Positions 819 through 53,738 of a stretch of 64,000 nt of DNA are shown here, piece by piece. A program made the translations under genes and the position numbers. The DNA lies in the NCBI RefSeq assembly GCF_001677475.2, contig NZ_CP015229.1; one strand, 5' to 3'. Source of the DNA: Escherichia coli. Lineage in GTDB: Bacteria > Pseudomonadota > Gammaproteobacteria > Enterobacterales > Enterobacteriaceae. How positions within the stretch are numbered: the stretch's first letter is position 1; each line of letters opens with the position of its first letter. Under the pieces are notes generated by a model, which saw only the letters and a program-made list of their open reading frames with translations, was not told where the DNA came from and did not search any database.

Positions 819-2822
819 ATGTCCCGAAAAGACCTTGCCAATGCGATTCGCGCACTCAGTATGGATGCGGTACAAAAAGCCAATTCTGGTCATCCCGGCG
901 CGCCGATGGGCATGGCTGATATTGCCGAAGTGCTGTGGAACGATTTTCTTAAACATAACCCTACCGACCCAACCTGGTATGATCGCGACCGCTTTATTCT
1001 TTCCAACGGTCACGCGTCGATGCTGCTCTACAGTTTGCTACATCTGACCGGTTACGACCTGCCGCTGGAAGAACTGAAGAACTTCCGTCAGTTGCATTCG
1101 AAAACCCCAGGCCACCCGGAAATCGGCTATACGCCAGGTGTTGAAACCACCACCGGTCCACTTGGACAAGGTTTGGCGAACGCCGTCGGGCTGGCGATAG
1201 CAGAGCGTACGCTGGCGGCGCAGTTTAACCAGCCAGATCATGAAATTGTCGATCACTTCACCTATGTGTTTATGGGCGACGGCTGCCTGATGGAAGGTAT
1301 TTCCCACGAAGTCTGTTCGCTGGCGGGCACGCTGGGACTGGGCAAGCTGATTGGTTTTTACGATCACAACGGTATTTCGATTGATGGAGAAACTGAAGGC
1401 TGGTTTACCGACGATACAGCAAAACGTTTTGAAGCCTATCACTGGCATGTGATCCACGAGATCGACGGCCACGATCCGCAGGCGGTGAAGGAAGCGATCC
1501 TTGAAGCGCAAAGCGTGAAAGATAAGCCGTCGCTGATTATCTGCCGTACGGTGATTGGCTTTGGTTCGCCGAATAAAGCAGGTAAGGAAGAGGCGCACGG
1601 CGCACCGCTGGGTGAAGAAGAAGTGGCATTGGCACGGCAAAAACTGGGCTGGCACCATCCGCCATTTGAGATCCCTAAAGAGATTTATCACGCCTGGGAT
1701 GCCCGCGAAAAAGGCGAAAAAGCGCAGCAGAGCTGGAATGAGAAGTTTGCCGCGTATAAAAAGGCCCATCCGCAACTGGCAGAGGAGTTTACCCGTCGGA
1801 TGAGCGGCGGTTTGCCGAAGGACTGGGAGAAAACGACTCAGAAATATATCAATGAGTTACAGGCGAATCCGGCGAAAATCGCTACCCGTAAGGCTTCGCA
1901 AAATACGCTTAACGCTTACGGGCCAATGCTTCCTGAGTTGCTCGGCGGTTCGGCGGATCTGGCTCCCAGCAACCTCACCATCTGGAAAGGTTCTGTGTCG
2001 CTGAAGGAGGATCCGGCGGGCAACTACATTCACTACGGGGTGCGGGAATTTGGCATGACCGCTATCGCCAACGGCATCGCGCACCACGGCGGCTTTGTGC
2101 CGTATACCGCGACGTTCCTGATGTTTGTTGAATACGCCCGTAACGCCGCGCGGATGGCGGCACTGATGAAAGCGCGGCAGATTATGGTTTATACCCACGA
2201 CTCAATTGGTCTGGGCGAAGATGGTCCGACACACCAGGCTGTTGAGCAACTGGCCAGTCTGCGCTTAACGCCAAATTTCAGCACCTGGCGACCGTGCGAT
2301 CAGGTGGAAGCAGCGGTGGGCTGGAAGCTGGCGGTTGAGCGCCACAACGGACCGACGGCACTGATCCTCTCAAGGCAGAATCTGGCCCAGGTGGAACGTA
2401 CGCCGGATCAGGTTAAAGAGATTGCTCGTGGCGGTTATGTGCTGAAAGACAGCGGCGGTAAGCCAGATATTATTTTGATTGCTACCGGTTCAGAGATGGA
2501 AATCACCCTGCAAGCGGCAGAGAAATTAGCAGGAGAAGGTCGCAATGTTCGCGTGGTTTCCCTGCCCTCGACCGATATTTTCGACGCCCAGGATGAGGAA
2601 TATCGGGAGTCGGTGTTGCCTTCTAACGTTGCGGCTCGCGTGGCGGTGGAAGCAGGCATCGCCGATTACTGGTACAAGTATGTTGGTCTGAAAGGGGCAA
2701 TTGTCGGGATGACAGGTTATGGGGAATCTGCTCCGGCGGATAAGCTGTTCCCGTTCTTTGGCTTTACCGCCGAGAATATTGTGGCAAAAGCGCATAAGGT
2801 GCTGGGAGTGAAAGGTGCCTGA
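819..2822 (+). CDS. tktB: transketolase 2
   Basis: ORF 756..2822 trimmed to ATG at 819 (667 aa) with GGAG-type RBS at ~807; transketolase TPP-binding sequence. Confidence 0.93.
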
Positions 2823-2839
2823 TGGTGATCGCCTGATGC

Positions 2840-2900
2840 TGATTGCCGGATGCGACGCTGACGCGTCTTATCCGGCCTACAGCGTCTTATCCGGTCTACA
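2840..2900. repeat. REP (repetitive extragenic palindrome) element(s)
   Basis: gccggatgcgacgc...cgtcttatccggcctac motif repeated directly after the tktB stop. Confidence 0.75.
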
Positions 2901-2917
2901 TGTCCCCGCCATTTTGT

Positions 2918-3961
2918 TTAACGGGTGATCCACAACGTGGGCCAGGCGTCTGGCCCATGCCAGTTATCGCAGGTGGGTTCTGCGGCGTAACGCACCAGGC
3001 GAAAACGCTGACCGTCAAAGCGCCAGCGCGCCTGAATGCCACAATCGCTTAATCCGCGCCCTTTCGCTAAGGTCACCAGTTCACGCGATTTCTCATCAAA
3101 TGTTGCGTTCATCAGTTCCAGTTCATTCGTCTCCTGACCGTTGTTGAACGGCAAACGCAACCGAACCGGGCGCGAGGCCAGCGGCTTTTTACGCGACACA
3201 ATCCATGCCAAATCAATGGTGTTATAGGCCCCTGCCTCACAGCTAATCATCATCAGCGCTTTATCATCAGTCAGCGCAGTGACATTCACCTCACGACGCA
3301 ATGGATCAAGCGAGCAGCGCAGACCATTCATCCGCCAGTTTCCATAATCCAGCAAATCGTTGCGTTCTTCGAGTGAGAGTGGCGTCGGCGTTGGGTTAAC
3401 CACCACAACCTCTTTCAGCGCAGGCGCGGGCGGTACGCTGAGCGGCGGTTCGTCCCCTTTCTTGATCCAGGCGGTTTCACTGCCAACGCGCTTTTGCTGA
3501 GCATCAATAAACAACAACGCCGCTTTTAAGCCGCTCAGAGAAATGGTCTGATTGCCGTCGCGTAAGGTGATCGCCTTCCCTTCCTGAATTATCTGCAAAA
3601 ACGCGGTGATGGTTGCCGTATCATCGGTTACTAATAACCATGGTGAAATCCGCCACTTGTCACCACTTAACGCCAACGGCTCACCATCTAACAGCAGCCG
3701 TGGCGCTATCTCCCCTTCAGACGCATCCGGCGACTTCAACCCGCCGCGCTCAATACGTAAAACGGCATCAGTATGCGCCCCGGCGCTGCGGCTCAGGGTC
3801 ATCACCAGTCCATTATGATCGCCCGTATTGCGCGCCACACAAAAATTTTGATTATTACAGGTGACCTGCCAGTCGGAAAACGCCTGTTGCGCTGGTGCCG
3901 CCCACACCAAAGACGTCGGCAACAAAGCGAAAAAAAAGAGAAGGAAAATGCGATAGCGCAT
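2918..3961 (-). CDS. ypfG: DUF1176 periplasmic protein YpfG
   Basis: 347-aa ORF with N-terminal signal peptide (MRYRIFLLFFFALLPTSLVWA); K-12 position and length. Confidence 0.88.
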   Translation of the reverse strand: MRYRIFLLFFFALLPTSLVWAAPAQQAFSDWQVTCNNQNFCVARNTGDHNGLVMTLSRSAGAHTDAVLRIERGGLKSPDASEGEIAPRLLLDGEPLALSGDKWRISPWLLVTDDTATITAFLQIIQEGKAITLRDGNQTISLSGLKAALLFIDAQQKRVGSETAWIKKGDEPPLSVPPAPALKEVVVVNPTPTPLSLEERNDLLDYGNWRMNGLRCSLDPLRREVNVTALTDDKALMMISCEAGAYNTIDLAWIVSRKKPLASRPVRLRLPFNNGQETNELELMNATFDEKSRELVTLAKGRGLSDCGIQARWRFDGQRFRLVRYAAEPTCDNWHGPDAWPTLWITR

Positions 3962-4086
3962 GGACGGTACGACCCCAGAAGTTCAAACAAACAGCACAAG
4001 TCGTATCTTCGTTGCGCAGGTAACGTGGCTCAATCGGATTTGTCGGATTGAGCCAATAATAAACAACGAAATATTATTGTTATTTT

Positions 4087-4662
4087 TCAGTCCATTAAAT
4101 GTGACATTTGCAAATAGTTAAGCAATAACACCGTCTTACCGTCACGTATCTCGCCGGTTTTGATCATCTCCAGCGCCTGGCTGAACGGCAGCTCGAGCAC
4201 TTCAATATCTTCATCTTCGACACCGCCACCGGCGTTAGCGCGCTGATTGTCACTGTATTCGGCGATAAAAAAGTGGATTAGCTCAGTCACACCGCCTGGC
4301 GACATATACAGTTCAAATAATTTGCGCACTTCGCCCACTTCATAGCCCGTCTCTTCAATCGCTTCTTTGCGAATGCACACTTCCGGTTCGTCGTTATCCA
4401 GCAGCCCGGCGCAGGTTTCAATCAGCAGCCCGGTTTCATTGCCATTAACCCAGGTAGCGACACGGAACTGGCGAATCAGAACCACCGTCTTTTTCTTCGC
4501 GTTGTACAGGAGGATCGTCGCACCATTACCGCGATCGTAAACTTCACGTTTATGGCGGATAACTTCGCCATCTTTGCGCGTGAGATCGTAAGTAATGTTG
4601 TGCAGGGTGAAATAGTTATCGGAGAGAATTTTGTCTTTAATGAGGGTGATTTGTTGCGTCAT
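4087..4662 (-). CDS. nudK: GDP-mannose pyrophosphatase (Nudix hydrolase)
   Basis: ORF 4087..4689 trimmed to ATG at 4662 (191 aa); Nudix box GX5EX7REUXEEXGU visible ([13 protein letters not shown]). Confidence 0.9.
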
Positions 4663-47897: not shown

Positions 47898-50141
47898 TCA
47901 GGCACTTTCGCGAATGGGTTCGATTTCATTCAACGTATCAATTAACGGCTGCGGCTTACCAATAAGATAACCCTGCATATAATCGATCCCCAAAGAGAGC
48001 ACCGCCTCGCGGATCTCTTCGTTTTCAACGTACTCTGCCACTACCAGCATTTTCTTCATTCGCGCCAGGTGGCAAATCGATGCCACTATCTGATAATCCA
48101 GACTATTTGACACAATATTGCGGATAAAACTGCCGTCAATTTTAAGCAGATCGGCATTCACATTTTTAAGCCGCGCATAGCTGGCGTAGCCGGTGCCGAA
48201 ATCATCAATCGCAATCTGGCAGCCTAATTCCTGAAGATGCTGCAAGGTGATTTGCGCCTGCTTAACATTGGTCAGAGCATTACTTTCGGTGACTTCAAAA
48301 ATAAGTTGCCACGCTTCAATCTGATATTTAGCCAGCAACTGACTGACTTCAACAGGAAAACGAGCCTGACATACCGAGGTTGGAGACAGATTAATAGCAA
48401 AACGGTGAGCGGGCATCTTCGCTCTGTTTTCAGCCATAAATTGCAGCGTATGCTCAATGACCCACATGTCGATACTCGACGATAAACCAAATTCGTGCGC
48501 GACCGGCAAGAAGCTATCGGGGCTGATCAATTCATCATTCTCACCTTTCATGCGCAGAAGAATTTCATGGTAAACATCACCACGCATACCGGTAATCGGC
48601 TGGGCCATCAGGAAAAAATGGTTGTGTTCCAGCGCCTGCTGTAGTCGATTCATCATCGCGACTTTATCTTTCAATTCGCGTTGCAAATACATTGCCCCGC
48701 GACGCTGCATATTTTCCGGGGCGTTGGTCACGATGGAAAGTTCGGCGACCGTATTTAGCTCTCCCAGCAGCAGGTAGATATGATTCACTGGCGAGCGCAC
48801 ATAGCAGTAACTGACGCCAATCTGCGGTTGCATCGGCATGCCATCCCAAAAGAAACGAAATTGCTTGAGATGGCTATCCAGTGCGGTAATGCGCTCCTGG
48901 TGCGATTCTGTATTCAGTCGCAGCGCGAGATCGTTACCCGAAAGCTGATAAACATCTTCACCCGGTTCCAGCAAGGGTGACAGCCAGTGAGAAAGTTTTT
49001 GCTTGTATTGAATCCGCAGCATGATGCCATAGTTCTTAACCAGCATTTCCATGCCAGGGATGCGTAAATAACAAAGCGCAGACCAGGGGGCATCACGCAA
49101 CGCGCGATTCAGGGCGCGAACATTTGGCAGATGAACCACCGGGTCCACATACGCAAGCCGCTGAATGCGTCTGACTACCGTTCTCTGACGGGTTGCCAGT
49201 ACAGCCATATAATTGACAATAAAAGAGAATACCAGATAACTGGAGGAGGTTATGGTCAGCTGCGTGGTATAGCCAGGATAAATGGGAATGTAATTTTGAT
49301 AGCTGTGGATGCTGATCATCAACACGACCGCCCAGAGCAGCGAAATCAGCTTATAACCATAGCGCATCGCTCCCCACATCATCAGGGGCAGCAATAATGA
49401 CAAGGTATAGTTGGTGCTAAAAATTGTGCTTTTTTCATTTAACGGCATGCATAACAGCAACAGTAAAGCACCTAATGCCAGTAGCCAGAGTGCGAACTCT
49501 TTTTTGGTGACTTTGACATCAACCTGCTGTTTTAATTGCGAATAATAGCTACGTAAATAAAATGGATTTCGCACTACCCGAATGATGAAGTAGCACAGCG
49601 GGACACCGATCAGATTACCCACCAGTAAGGCCTGATAATTGATTAAAGTCCCGAGGTTAAAAGGCATGACACCGACCAGATTTTCTCTACTCGCCAGTAA
49701 TCCTACAAATGCGGCAAACTGGAAAAGTATCAGAAACAGCGTTGCAGGAAACACAATCTGCCAGAATATACGCTGGGAAATTAAACGGGTATCACCATGT
49801 GAAACGTTGTTACGCCGGGGAGTAAAGACCCTGTAACCGCCCCAACAGAGAATGATAATGATAATAAAATTAGCCGTTAACGAGAGCGTTTCGTAAAAAC
49901 CCAGCTCTGAATATTTGCGGACAAAAATCCCTAAGGCGATCCCTGGCAATGCCGCCCAGCTGAAAAACATCATCATGCTGATCATCAGTGCCAGAGGCAG
50001 ATAAAAGAGAAAAACCTCACCGGAAGAAATATGCGCGAAAGTATTGATGTGGCCGAAAATGGGCAAGATTAAAGAAGGCAGGAACAGCGGAAGCCCCCAC
50101 CATTTATCACGTATTTTTATATAGGTTGCATTCAGTTTCAT
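47898..50141 (-). CDS. pdeF: c-di-GMP phosphodiesterase PdeF (MASE1 - degenerate GGDEF - EAL)
   Basis: 747-aa ORF; hydrophobic N-terminal half and C-terminal EAL domain (QPITGMRGDVYHEILLRM...). Confidence 0.92.
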   Translation of the reverse strand: MKLNATYIKIRDKWWGLPLFLPSLILPIFGHINTFAHISSGEVFLFYLPLALMISMMMFFSWAALPGIALGIFVRKYSELGFYETLSLTANFIIIIILCWGGYRVFTPRRNNVSHGDTRLISQRIFWQIVFPATLFLILFQFAAFVGLLASRENLVGVMPFNLGTLINYQALLVGNLIGVPLCYFIIRVVRNPFYLRSYYSQLKQQVDVKVTKKEFALWLLALGALLLLLCMPLNEKSTIFSTNYTLSLLLPLMMWGAMRYGYKLISLLWAVVLMISIHSYQNYIPIYPGYTTQLTITSSSYLVFSFIVNYMAVLATRQRTVVRRIQRLAYVDPVVHLPNVRALNRALRDAPWSALCYLRIPGMEMLVKNYGIMLRIQYKQKLSHWLSPLLEPGEDVYQLSGNDLALRLNTESHQERITALDSHLKQFRFFWDGMPMQPQIGVSYCYVRSPVNHIYLLLGELNTVAELSIVTNAPENMQRRGAMYLQRELKDKVAMMNRLQQALEHNHFFLMAQPITGMRGDVYHEILLRMKGENDELISPDSFLPVAHEFGLSSSIDMWVIEHTLQFMAENRAKMPAHRFAINLSPTSVCQARFPVEVSQLLAKYQIEAWQLIFEVTESNALTNVKQAQITLQHLQELGCQIAIDDFGTGYASYARLKNVNADLLKIDGSFIRNIVSNSLDYQIVASICHLARMKKMLVVAEYVENEEIREAVLSLGIDYMQGYLIGKPQPLIDTLNEIEPIRESA

Positions 50142-50282: not shown

Positions 50283-50492
50283 ACAAAATAACCCTGATTA
50301 ATGAATTATTACGTTTATCATGTTAATTCATCATTATTACATCATCATTGTAAATAATTAAATTAACTTCCATAACATTAAAATATGTATCCACTGACGC
50401 TTTTTTACATAACGAAGAATTGACCATTTTGTCCTGTTGTGCCTTAATGTAAGTACCGTCCACTGCGTGGGACATACTTCAAGGAACCTTTT

Positions 50493-50684
50493 GTGAGTCA
50501 GGCAACCAGTATGCGAAAACGACACCGATTTAACAGTCGCATGACCCGTATCGTACTGCTCATCAGCTTTATCTTCTTCTTTGGCCGTTTTATCTACTCG
50601 TCCGTCGGTGCATGGCAGCACCATCAGAGCAAAAAAGAAGCTCAGCAATCCACACTCTCCGTCGAATCACCGGTACAACGTTAG
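50493..50684 (+). CDS. yfgG: 63-aa small membrane protein YfgG
   Basis: ORF encoding MSQATSMRKRHRFNSRMTRIVLLISFIFFFGRFIYSS... with one TM helix; flanked by very AT-rich DNA. Confidence 0.8.
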   Translation: MSQATSMRKRHRFNSRMTRIVLLISFIFFFGRFIYSSVGAWQHHQSKKEAQQSTLSVESPVQR

Positions 50685-50994
50685 CGGTTACCTTCTCCAC
50701 TTTCACAGAACATAACGGCACCTCGCTGTCGGATGCTTTTGCTCTTTGGGATTATCAAAGCGGCAGATATTCTTTCATCTTAAATTTTACGTCTTTGTCC
50801 TGACTGATGTTTATCCTGTTTGGCTGCGAAATAAATATAAAATTAATACATATGTTTTAATGATGTATTTTTATAAATTATTTTCCACGTGAATTTTAAT
50901 AAATTTAATCTATTCCTTTATACGCAATACATTTACTTTCCTCTTTTGATGATCTTAAATGTCTTATTTTTCGTAATGTGTATAACAAGGAATA

Positions 50995-51513
50995 GTGATG
51001 AAATTTAAAAAATGTCTTCTGCCTGTGGCAATGTTAGCGTCATTCACTCTGGCAGGATGCCAGTCAAATGCTGATGATCATGCCGCCGATGTTTATCAAA
51101 CCGATCAACTGAATACCAAACAAGAAACTAAAACCGTTAATATTATTTCCATTCTTCCCGCAAAAGTTGCCGTAGACAACTCCCAAAATAAACGAAACGC
51201 ACAAGCCTTCGGCGCGCTTATTGGTGCAGTCGCTGGCGGTGTAATCGGCCACAACGTGGGGTCTGGCAGCAATTCCGGAACGACGGCAGGTGCAGTTGGC
51301 GGCGGAGCTGTAGGCGCGGCAGCAGGTTCTATGGTGAATGATAAAACCTTAGTGGAAGGTGTTTCTCTAACGTATAAGGAAGGCACCAAAGTGTATACCT
51401 CCACCCAGGTGGGTAAAGAGTGCCAGTTTACGACAGGTTTAGCCGTTGTTATTACCACGACGTATAACGAAACGCGTATTCAGCCAAATACGAAATGTCC
51501 TGAAAAGAGCTAA
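50995..51513 (+). CDS. yfgH: outer-membrane lipoprotein YfgH (glycine-zipper)
   Basis: 172-aa ORF; lipobox LAGC; Gly-rich zipper GAVAGGVIGHNVGSGSNSGTTAGAVGGGAVGAAAGS. Confidence 0.88.
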   Translation: MMKFKKCLLPVAMLASFTLAGCQSNADDHAADVYQTDQLNTKQETKTVNIISILPAKVAVDNSQNKRNAQAFGALIGAVAGGVIGHNVGSGSNSGTTAGAVGGGAVGAAAGSMVNDKTLVEGVSLTYKEGTKVYTSTQVGKECQFTTGLAVVITTTYNETRIQPNTKCPEKS

Positions 51514-51528
51514 TGATCAGGAGGAGTC

Positions 51529-52068
51529 ATGAAGAAAGTTTTTCTTTGCGCCATCTTAGCCTCCTTAAGCTATCCGGCTATCGCCTCATCATTGCAGGAT
51601 CAACTCTCGGCTGTCGCAGAAGCGGAACAGCAAGGTAAAAATGAAGAGCAAAGGCAGCATGACGAATGGGTCGCGGAGCGCAACAGGGAAATCCAGCAAG
51701 AGAAGCAACGTCGCGCAAACGCCCAGGCCGCGGCTAATAAAAGAGCGGCAACGGCAGCGGCGAATAAGAAAGCTCGTCAGGATAAACTGGACGCCGAAGC
51801 CTCTGCGGACAAAAAACGCGATCAAAGTTATGAAGATGAGCTACGCAGCTTAGAGATTCAGAAACAAAAACTGGCGCTGGCAAAAGAAGAAGCCCGCGTT
51901 AAGCGAGAAAACGAATTTATCGATCAGGAACTGAAGCACAAAGCTGCGCAAACCGATGTGGTGCAATCTGAAGCTGACGCAAACAGGAATATGACTGAGG
52001 GCGGTCGAGATCTGATGAAAAGCGTGGGCAAAGCAGAAGAGAACAAATCGGACAGCTGGTTTAACTAA
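51529..52068 (+). CDS. yfgI: signal-peptide protein YfgI, highly charged predicted coiled coil
   Basis: 179-aa ORF; signal peptide then K/E/R/Q/A-rich low-complexity sequence. Confidence 0.88.
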   Translation: MKKVFLCAILASLSYPAIASSLQDQLSAVAEAEQQGKNEEQRQHDEWVAERNREIQQEKQRRANAQAAANKRAATAAANKKARQDKLDAEASADKKRDQSYEDELRSLEIQKQKLALAKEEARVKRENEFIDQELKHKAAQTDVVQSEADANRNMTEGGRDLMKSVGKAEENKSDSWFN

Positions 52069-52105
52069 GCGATGTCAGTAATTTCAAGCCTATGATTCGT
52101 GAGTA

Positions 52106-52140
52106 TAAAAAACCCTCTGTAGTAACAGAGGGTTTTGTTC
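52106..52140. terminator. bidirectional intrinsic terminator (yfgI / guaA)
   Basis: aaaaaaccctctgtagtaacagagggttttgtt: A-tract, stem, T-tract between convergent genes. Confidence 0.8.
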
Positions 52141-52160
52141 ATTCATAGTGCAGGGTCAAA

Positions 52161-53738
52161 TCATTCCCACTCAATAGTCGCTGGTGGCTTGCCGCTGATG
52201 TCATACACCACGCGGGAAATACCGTTCACTTCATTGATAATGCGGTTGGAAACGCGACCGAGGAAGTCATACGGCAGGTGCGCCCAGTGTGCGGTCATAA
52301 AGTCGATGGTTTCGACAGCACGCAGAGAAACAACCCAGTCATACTTACGACCATCGCCCATTACACCAACGGAACGTACCGGCAGGAAGACGGTGAACGC
52401 CTGGCTGACTTTGTCGTACAGGTCCGCTTTACGCAGTTCTTCAATAAAGATGGCGTCAGCACGGCGCAGCAGGTCGCAGTACTCTTTCTTCACTTCGCCC
52501 AGTACACGAACGCCGAGGCCTGGTCCCGGGAACGGGTGACGGTACAGCATGTCGTACGGCAGGCCCAGCTCCAGACCAATCTTACGCACTTCGTCTTTGA
52601 ACAGCTCTTTCAGCGGTTCAACCAGCCCCATCTTCATCTCTTTCGGCAGGCCGCCCACGTTGTGGTGAGATTTGATGACGTGTGCTTTACCGGTTGCAGA
52701 CGCCGCAGATTCGATAACGTCAGGGTAGATAGTACCCTGCGCCAGCCACTTCACGTCTTCCAGTTTCAGCGCTTCTTCATCGAATACTTCAACGAAAACG
52801 CGCCCGATGATTTTACGTTTTGCTTCCGGATCGTTTTCGCCAGCCAGCGCTGACAGGAAGCGATCTTCTGCCGGAACGTGAACAATATTGAGACCAAAGT
52901 GATCGCCAAACATATCCAGAACCTGCTCTGCTTCGTTGAGGCGCAGCAGGCCATTGTCGACGAATACGCAAGTCAGGTTTTTACCGATAGCGCGGTGCAG
53001 CAGCATTGCGGTTACGGAGGAATCCACACCACCAGAGAGGCCGAGGATGACTTTATCGTCGCCTACCTGCTCGCGGATGCGAGCTACAGCATCGTCGATA
53101 ATTTTCGCTGGCGTCCACAGGGCTTCACACTGGCAGATATCACGCACAAAACGCTCCAGCATGCGCATACCCTGGCGGGTGTGAGTCACTTCCGGGTGGA
53201 ACTGTACGCCATAGAAGCGTTTTTCTTCGTTAGCCATAATGGCAAACGGGCAGCTTTCGGTGCTGGCTACGGTGACGAAGTCGGACGGGATAGCGGTAAC
53301 TTTATCGCCGTGGCTCATCCAGACATCGAGCAGCGGTTTACCGTCTGCGGTCAGCGCATCTTCGATACCGCGAACCAGGGCGCTGTCGTTTACGACTTCA
53401 ACCTGCGCGTAGCCAAATTCACGTTCGTTAGAGGCTTCAACGTGACCGCCCAACTGCATTGCCATGGTCTGCATACCATAGCAAACGCCGAATACCGGTA
53501 CGCCTGCTTCAAAAACATACTGCGGCGCACGCGGGCTGTTTTCTTCGGTGGTGCTTTCCGGGCCGCCGGAAAGAATAATGCCGCTTGGATTGAAGTCACG
53601 AATTTGTGCTTCTGTCACATCCCATGCCCACAGTTCGCAGTAAACGCCCAGCTCACGCACGCGGCGCGCAACCAGTTGAGTATACTGGGAACCGAAGTCC
53701 AGAATGAGGATGCGATGCTTATGAATGTTTTCCGTCAT
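52161..53738 (-). CDS. guaA: GMP synthase (glutamine-hydrolysing)
   Basis: 525-aa ORF; class-I glutamine amidotransferase domain and ATP pyrophosphatase SGGVDSS motif. Confidence 0.95.

Follow-up and report, generated by a model that had tools for sequence, protein, structure and literature searches.

The closest described relative of YfgH, the protein considered here, is SlyB, an outer-membrane lipoprotein of Escherichia coli that belongs to the PCP family (PDB 7ojf and 7ojg) and for which three phospholipid-binding residues are described. In the SlyB literature its hairpin is described as two transmembrane helices and the remainder of the protein as a periplasmic domain. Furthermore, the IncF surface-exclusion lipoprotein TraT (PDB 9fs5, 9fsm and 9e2v) possesses, like YfgH, a Gly/Ala-rich helical hairpin followed by beta strands. 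TraT assembles into rings (decamers), and an extracellular position was reported for its ring domain (PMC11733297). SlyB and YfgH are not mentioned in the TraT structure papers. The E. coli lipoproteins YiaD, OsmB and YmgG have the glycine-zipper motif in common with YfgH but none of them matches it over the full length; YiaD contains an OmpA-like domain, and YfgH shows weak similarity to the N-terminal portion of the YiaD model. Cor, Llp and Bor are small outer-membrane lipoproteins encoded by accessory genes of temperate phages and expressed from the prophage. They are single genes, whereas yfgH and yfgI form a two-gene cassette (yfgHI).

A connection of yfgH with the envelope was described already in 2011, when synthetic sickness with lptD, vancomycin-induced bulging and lowered outer-membrane protein levels were reported (Babu et al. 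2011, PMC3219608). According to a preprint of the Raivio laboratory from December 2025, YfgH-His fractionates with the outer membrane and a yfgH deletion is sensitive to SDS/EDTA and shows raised NPN permeability. The gene is induced by knockdown of lpxC, lptD or bamA, overexpression of YfgH rescues these knockdowns, and plasmid-borne YfgH alone complements the deletion (bioRxiv 10.64898/2025.12.22.696046). The SDS/EDTA sensitivity is shared with slyB mutants, and BamA, LptD and porins are co-purified with YfgH as well as with SlyB; the suppressors differ, with clsA for yfgH versus the Mla pathway for slyB. In the same preprint AlphaFold 3 predicts SlyB-like rings of YfgH, for which the authors concede that there is no strong biochemical evidence, and cardiolipin is proposed as the enclosed lipid; yfgI, an operon and TraT are not mentioned (bioRxiv 10.64898/2025.12.22.696046). 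That YfgH is a SlyB-like outer-membrane lipoprotein is already known from the RefSeq annotation and this preprint. A role in outer-membrane integrity, as proposed in a first-pass annotation of the locus, is therefore borne out by published experiments. The deletion phenotype suggested there as a check exists in the literature, and a cytoplasmic localisation, named there as counter-evidence, is contradicted by the fractionation.

For the second gene less has been published. In 2024 the pair was treated as an operon, yfgHI, with the orthologs srgIL in Salmonella Typhi; YfgH was called 'SlyB-like', and control of the pair by SdiA/AHL was found in Typhi and not in E. coli (PMC11619404). The only phenotype published for yfgI concerns a mutant whose survival on nalidixic acid was 7 % of the wild type and near normal on ampicillin and kasugamycin, which was interpreted as a defect in the DNA-damage response (PMC3536626).

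The window analysed here is a stretch of 64,000 nucleotides of an E. coli genome (assembly GCF_001677475.2, contig NZ_CP015229.1). It contains the gene order pdeF, a 50-codon open reading frame (ORF), yfgG, yfgH, yfgI and guaA (Table 1). The name yfgH given by the first-pass annotation is correct, as shown by megablast of positions 50400-52200 and in agreement with RefSeq. This region was found in 5425 of 5426 complete E. coli genomes with 95-99.2 % identity, and yfgH is a core gene of E. coli. The maximum identity of the 1.8 kb among these genomes is 99.2 %, with 30 genomes reaching 99 %; at the protein level YfgH and YfgI nevertheless agree to 100 % with their counterparts in an O103:H25 strain.

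Table 1 The yfgHI locus and its neighbourhood. Positions refer to the window; aa amino acids, nt nucleotides, CDS coding sequence, 2TM two transmembrane helices
Feature	Position	Strand	Remarks
pdeF	47898-50141	-	
50-codon ORF	50323-50475	-	RefSeq hypothetical protein; divergent from yfgG
yfgG	50493-50684	+	YfgG 63 aa, single hydrophobic segment; DUF2633, 97.6 bits
Candidate yfgH promoter	50932-50960	+	TTTACT 50932-50937, 17-nt spacer, TTAAAT 50955-50960; inside block conserved in Escherichia
yfgH Shine-Dalgarno sequence	50987-50991	+	AAGGA
yfgH CDS	50995-51513	+	172 aa from GTG 50995; alternative ATG 50998; stop 51511-51513
Lipoprotein signal peptide	50995-51060	+	ends in lipobox LAGC, aa 19-22, nt 51049-51060
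N-terminal part of split beta domain	51061-51210	+	aa 23-72, conserved VLPAKV strand; aligns with SlyB 20-60
Glycine-zipper helical hairpin	51211-51330	+	aa 73-112; aligns with SlyB 2TM hairpin
C-terminal part of beta domain	51331-51510	+	aa 113-172; Cys143/Cys168 and ETRIQPN; pLDDT 85-96
yfgH-yfgI spacer	51514-51528	+	15 nt; Shine-Dalgarno sequence GGAGG 51520-51524
yfgI CDS	51529-52068	+	179 aa; DUF5384
Hairpin, 12-bp stem	52109-52136		after yfgI; flanking A-tract and T-tract
guaA	52161-53738	-	

The spacer between yfgG and yfgH (50685-50994, 310 bp) is AT-rich, with a GC content of 27.7 % at 50750-51049. In an alignment of six Escherichia upstream regions conservation is limited to its last ~110 nt. 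The alignment and the composition profile suggest, with low confidence, that the TTTACT-17 nt-TTAAAT arrangement within this block could serve as the yfgH promoter; a consensus promoter scan of the + strand upstream of yfgH reported neither this candidate nor any other promoter. Boxes for sigma-E, CpxR or RcsB were not seen upstream of yfgH on inspection by eye. The sole PhoP-like feature, a repeat TGTTTA-3 nt-TGTTTG at about 50808-50822, was rejected for its wrong spacing.

In the spacer between yfgH and yfgI the consensus scan found no promoter or terminator on the + strand. Downstream of yfgI an 85-nt segment (52066-52150) that holds the hairpin folds with z = -5.07, a value matched by 0 of 200 shuffles. 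The hairpin, with its A- and T-tracts, is likely a bidirectional terminator common to yfgI on the + strand and guaA on the - strand. Because a terminator consensus is missing between the genes and a strong hairpin follows yfgI, yfgH and yfgI can be regarded as one transcription unit.

The N-terminus of YfgH reads MMKFKKCLLPVAMLASFTLAGC. It displays all the sequence features of a bacterial lipoprotein (charged n-region, h-region and a lipobox [LVI][ASTVI][GAS]C): in MMKFKK-CLLPVAMLASFT-LAGC a lysine-rich n-region and a hydrophobic h-region are followed by the lipobox, as the first-pass annotation had stated. The lipobox cysteine is at least 90 % conserved in 60 representatives of the YfgH family. 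The residue at position +2 is Gln and not Asp, which fits sorting to the outer membrane.

The Gly/Ala-rich zipper of ~40 aa described by the first-pass annotation exists exactly as a 40-aa segment with 14 Gly, 9 Ala and 4 Ser. It does not adjoin the lipobox, however, since 50 residues intervene, and the picture of a simple segment behind the lipobox has to be replaced by a helical hairpin that is inserted into a split beta domain. YfgH contains 9 GxxxG motifs, a count that was reached by 0 of 10,000 shuffles of the mature protein. The hairpin is composed of two GxxxGxxxGxxxG ladders, G73/77/81/85 and G99/103/107/111, with the polar loop HNVGSGSNSGTT between them. All eight ladder glycines are invariant in 19 YfgH homologs of 64-98 % identity, and four of them (G76, G80, G102 and G106) retain a conservation of at least 90 % among the 60 representatives, whose identity goes down to 28 %.

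An HMM search, which had been proposed as a check, places YfgH in a glycine-zipper family above the gathering threshold: Pfam PF05433 (Rick_17kDa_Anti, Glycine zipper 2TM) matches residues 72-113 with profile positions 2-42 of 43 at 33.2 bits (cutoff 24.2). The models PF13441 (YMGG-like glycine zipper; 22.5 bits, cutoff 28.9) and PF13488 (Gly-zipper_Omp; 21.2 bits, cutoff 25) stay below threshold. Of the Pcp/SlyB/YmgG-like assignment made at first, the SlyB/Pcp-like part stands and the YmgG-like part has to be dropped. Matches to Lysis_col and MltD were set aside, being confined to the region of the signal peptide and lipobox.

The best PDB sequence match of YfgH is SlyB (7ojf; phmmer E = 4e-10, residues 8-163 against 6-154). 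It is kept by a search with the YfgH family profile (E = 1.2e-9). A first structure model, built on a shallow alignment of the 19 close homologs, had a pLDDT of 40.7 and was discarded. The second AlphaFold 2 model was calculated for a fused YfgH-linker-YfgI chain with 30 paired rows from the yfgHI loci treated below and 58 unpaired family representatives, and reached a mean pLDDT of 78 and a pTM of 0.40. Here the beta strands flanking the hairpin have block-mean pLDDT values of 81-96, with a strand at 24-40 (mature-chain numbering; 81-91) in the N-terminal beta part. The hairpin helices, 42-67 and 72-91 in the same numbering, are predicted with moderate confidence (56-63). Compared with the PDB by Foldseek, the YfgH model gives SlyB chain 7ojf_A as the only significant match (E = 1e-8, probability 1.00), with a TM-score of 0.67 normalised to SlyB over 147 aligned columns. 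Because of these matches in both sequence and fold, YfgH can be considered a full-length SlyB-type protein.

Both proteins consist, in the same order, of a lipobox, an N-terminal beta part, a two-helix glycine-zipper hairpin and a C-terminal beta part, and they are of similar length (172 aa for YfgH, 155 aa for SlyB). However, the identity between them is only ~22 %, and there are further differences. The YfgH family has a conserved cysteine pair (at least 90 % at Cys142/Cys167 in numbering from the ATG, which are Cys143/Cys168 from the GTG) and the motif ETRIQPN, with R160, Q162, P163 and N164 at least 90 % conserved; both are absent from the stretch of SlyB that is aligned by sequence. The cysteine pair likely forms a disulfide in the periplasm. 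Finally, unlike SlyB, YfgH is always accompanied by the partner gene yfgI. The family is small, with 461 representative clusters at E <= 1e-3 among 1.84 billion, and taxonomically patchy. The PHROGs family phrog_1277 matches YfgH over its full length with 369 bits, yet it is labelled 'DNA methyltransferase', and the same label is found on YfgH homologs in the RefSeq phage records NC_019445.1, NC_050152.1, NC_031129.1 and NC_042128.1. This looks like a propagated annotation error.

YfgI matches Pfam PF17358 (DUF5384) with 208.2 bits (cutoff 25) at residues 33-178, covering the full profile. At the N-terminus about aa 1-19/20 form a signal peptide typical of signal peptidase I substrates, which ends in AIA and lacks a lipobox. 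Charged residues make up about 40 % of YfgI, and the protein is rich in Ala, Glu, Gln and Lys; an N-terminal SLQDQLAAVA motif and the C-terminal half are the conserved parts. In the fused model YfgI is one uninterrupted helix at model residues 179-331, with block-mean pLDDT values of at least 90 over about 190-290; the predicted helix of ~150 residues would be ~22 nm long at 1.5 Å per residue. Since the pTM of the model is as low as 0.40, the position of YfgI relative to YfgH is not predicted and no contact can be claimed from it. A PDB sequence search gave no match for YfgI. Matches to the NCBIfam models for TolA and MutL (10.4 and 9.1 bits) were read as compositional. Defence-system matches were found by PADLOC for neither YfgH nor YfgI.

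The linkage of the two genes was followed with an alignment of YfgI homologs as query against one genome per species (GTDB, 100,044 species), which gave 32 loci. They come from Escherichia species, Pseudocitrobacter, Citrobacter, Kluyvera, seven Xenorhabdus species and Pantoea, and furthermore from Pseudomonas duriflava, Cellvibrio, Haemophilus, Actinobacillus, Nitrosomonas, Parvibaculum, Swaminathania and other Alphaproteobacteria. Together with others collected, 48 loci from Gamma-, Beta- and Alphaproteobacteria were available. A YfgH homolog lies directly upstream of YfgI on the same strand in every one of them (48/48; HMM searches of six-frame ORFs), with a median gap of 15 nt, and the arrangement is identical in loci reached with YfgH as query. 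The idea of a two-gene module, voiced at first for the window alone, is strongly supported by this count. The pairing is strong comparative evidence for one functional unit and not for physical contact. In the second locus of Escherichia sp. E1V33 YfgH gives two separate HMM matches whose coordinates suggest a frameshift, and in Xenorhabdus szentirmaii there are two separate matches of YfgI; such split matches may reflect decay of extra copies or sequencing errors.

The pair is also found on mobile elements. By tblastn, YfgH homologs were detected in 205 and YfgI homologs in 200 plasmid records, with a nearly equal genus split, and an identical set of 13 phage records is matched by both proteins. 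The counterpart of the pair in phage P7 is upf50.5/upf50.0 (69 and 47.5 % identity), with the c4-icd-ant immunity region on one side and the late tail-tube operon on the other; the P7 annotation already notes its similarity to E. coli proteins. This version of the pair, carried by P7/P1-like phage-plasmids, occurs at >=99 % identity in 164 of the 5426 complete E. coli genomes (3 %), almost always on plasmids. Other copies lie at the edges of myovirus-type prophages and adjoin tail-fibre or tail-fibre-assembly genes, one of them also AbiH. Xenorhabdus and Pantoea carry the pair in chromosomal contexts that are not phage-related. On a mobilisable ColRNAI plasmid of Citrobacter (NZ_CP056189.1, 4196 bp) nothing was found beyond mobilisation genes and a yfgHI-like pair; the YfgI homolog spans the origin of the record and is hence missing from its gene table. 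On related E. coli plasmids of 7.5 kb the cassette is joined by IS1 and by an ORF for a distant CptA/EptB-like phosphoethanolamine transferase of 536 aa. In one of them (NZ_CP073991.1, ColRNAI) this AT-rich ORF is located at 2773-4383 beside the cassette and IS1. RefSeq annotates only its C-terminal 421 aa, as phosphoethanolamine transferase; the best NCBIfam model is CptA with 118 bits (cutoff 404), and the MCR models give 38-52 bits (cutoffs at least 1100).

From these data, the product of yfgH is probably a SlyB paralog, an outer-membrane lipoprotein with its glycine hairpin in the membrane, whose gene forms an operon with the obligate partner yfgI. YfgH would be cleaved by signal peptidase II, lipidated at Cys22 and sorted to the outer membrane, where the hairpin with its two ladders would insert into the membrane. 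The beta strands that flank the hairpin would combine into one small domain, which is periplasmic in SlyB. By analogy with the cryo-EM rings of SlyB, neighbouring hairpins might pack through their glycine faces, so that ring-shaped palisades of YfgH could fence off lipids and outer-membrane proteins under membrane stress. yfgI would be co-transcribed and the highly charged YfgI secreted. The sequence features, the homology and fold relationship to SlyB, the linkage of the genes and their distribution come from the present analysis, and the localisation, mutant phenotypes and co-purifying proteins from the literature; ring formation, the topology of the YfgH domain, a physical interaction of YfgH with YfgI and the role of YfgI are inferred. 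A periplasmic location is expected for YfgI; should YfgH and YfgI touch each other, the YfgH domain must therefore be periplasmic as in SlyB, and the surface with the cysteine pair and ETRIQPN would be a reasonable candidate for a docking site.

A wider reading, which we consider possible but doubtful, takes yfgHI as a self-contained mobile module of two proteins that reinforces or remodels the outer membrane, with a ring of YfgH, YfgI docked to it and the chromosomal copy domesticated. In such a module YfgI, probably a coiled-coil oligomer, would dock on the disulfide-braced periplasmic ETRIQPN surface of YfgH and would either control the assembly of the ring or tie it to the cell wall or the inner membrane. 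Temperate phages and small plasmids would carry the pair for protection of the host envelope or for sequestration of receptors (lysogenic conversion or exclusion), and yfgHI on the E. coli chromosome would be the domesticated version. With respect to the probable SlyB-type lipoprotein and its partner, complementation by YfgH alone and the nalidixic-acid phenotype of yfgI do not point to a joint function.

These last two observations would be expected if yfgI were a mere neighbour, YfgH acting alone and YfgI having an unrelated function, for instance in DNA damage tolerance; the silence of the YfgH preprint about yfgI is in line with this as well. Such a coincidence is nevertheless improbable in view of an adjacency without exception over three proteobacterial classes, plasmids and phages at a median gap of 15 nt. 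In addition, the two genes travel together and are the sole cargo found on the 4.2-kb plasmid, and the signal peptide of YfgI is ill-suited to a direct role in DNA repair. Sensitivity to nalidixic acid can also stem from a greater permeability of the outer membrane.

It is similarly unlikely that YfgH is TraT-like, that is, a lipid-anchored helical barrel with a surface-exposed beta domain that functions in DNA or phage exclusion or in serum resistance and not in membrane repair. The Pfam model for TraT (PF05818) matches YfgH at residues 61-157, which extends past the zipper (E = 2e-6), but its 28.1 bits are below the cutoff of 31. Likewise, 10 of the 60 family members match TraT at E <= 1e-3 and TraT chains rank second and third in the PDB by sequence (E = 0.013-0.14) and by fold; they drop out of the profile search, however, and the Foldseek match is marginal (E = 0.04-0.08, TM-score 0.21-0.24, with E = 0.04 and 0.24 at best, rmsd 14 Å). 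Both proteins are carried by mobile elements, the yfgHI pair by phage-plasmids, by prophage edges beside tail-fibre genes and AbiH and by small mobilisable plasmids. On the other hand, the solved TraT chains have 225-261 aa compared with 172 aa of YfgH, YfgI with its ordinary Sec signal peptide is expected in the periplasm, and chromosomal yfgH has a stress-protection phenotype (bioRxiv 10.64898/2025.12.22.696046; PMC3219608). The remaining idea, that the Gly/Ala-rich stretch is a flexible low-complexity linker in an ordinary periplasmic lipoprotein which does not insert into the membrane, would suit the simple composition of the segment and the moderate confidence of the hairpin in the monomer model, but is very improbable given the strict i, i+4 register of the glycines in two ladders, the conservation of G76, G80, G102 and G106, a GxxxG count that shuffling did not reproduce and the alignment with a SlyB hairpin that is two transmembrane helices in the solved structure.

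For the probable SlyB-type lipoprotein with its partner the consequences are as follows. The published model of YfgH leaves out yfgI, a gene that was never separated from yfgH in the loci examined. In the literature searched, neither the obligate pairing nor the mobility of yfgHI on phage-plasmids, prophages and small plasmids was found, apart from the similarity noted in the P7 annotation, and the same is true for the cysteine pair and ETRIQPN as features specific to YfgH. If YfgI is necessary for the assembly or anchoring of rings, the SlyB-type nanodomain model gains a periplasmic component, and mobile copies might affect the susceptibility to detergents, peptides or phages. In one set of small plasmids the neighbour of the pair is a gene whose product is distantly homologous to enzymes that modify LPS with phosphoethanolamine. 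The pairing and the mobile copies could guide work on the stabilisation of damaged outer membranes in Gram-negative bacteria.

Some database matches that resemble phage carriage have another origin. All 80 IMG/VR loci kept have 99-100 % identity to YfgI of the window, and most of them are viral contigs of 10-50 kb that break off 531 nt upstream of yfgI and thus close to the start of yfgH. They were therefore read as boundary artefacts of a prophage integrated next to yfgI. In other strains the yfgI-guaA spacer (52069-52160) apparently serves as an attachment site for prophages; in the window itself it is free of a prophage. The same explanation applies to the 100 % match in 'phage TL-2011b': in this record pdeF'-yfgG-yfgH-yfgI is host flank, and phage lysis genes come next.
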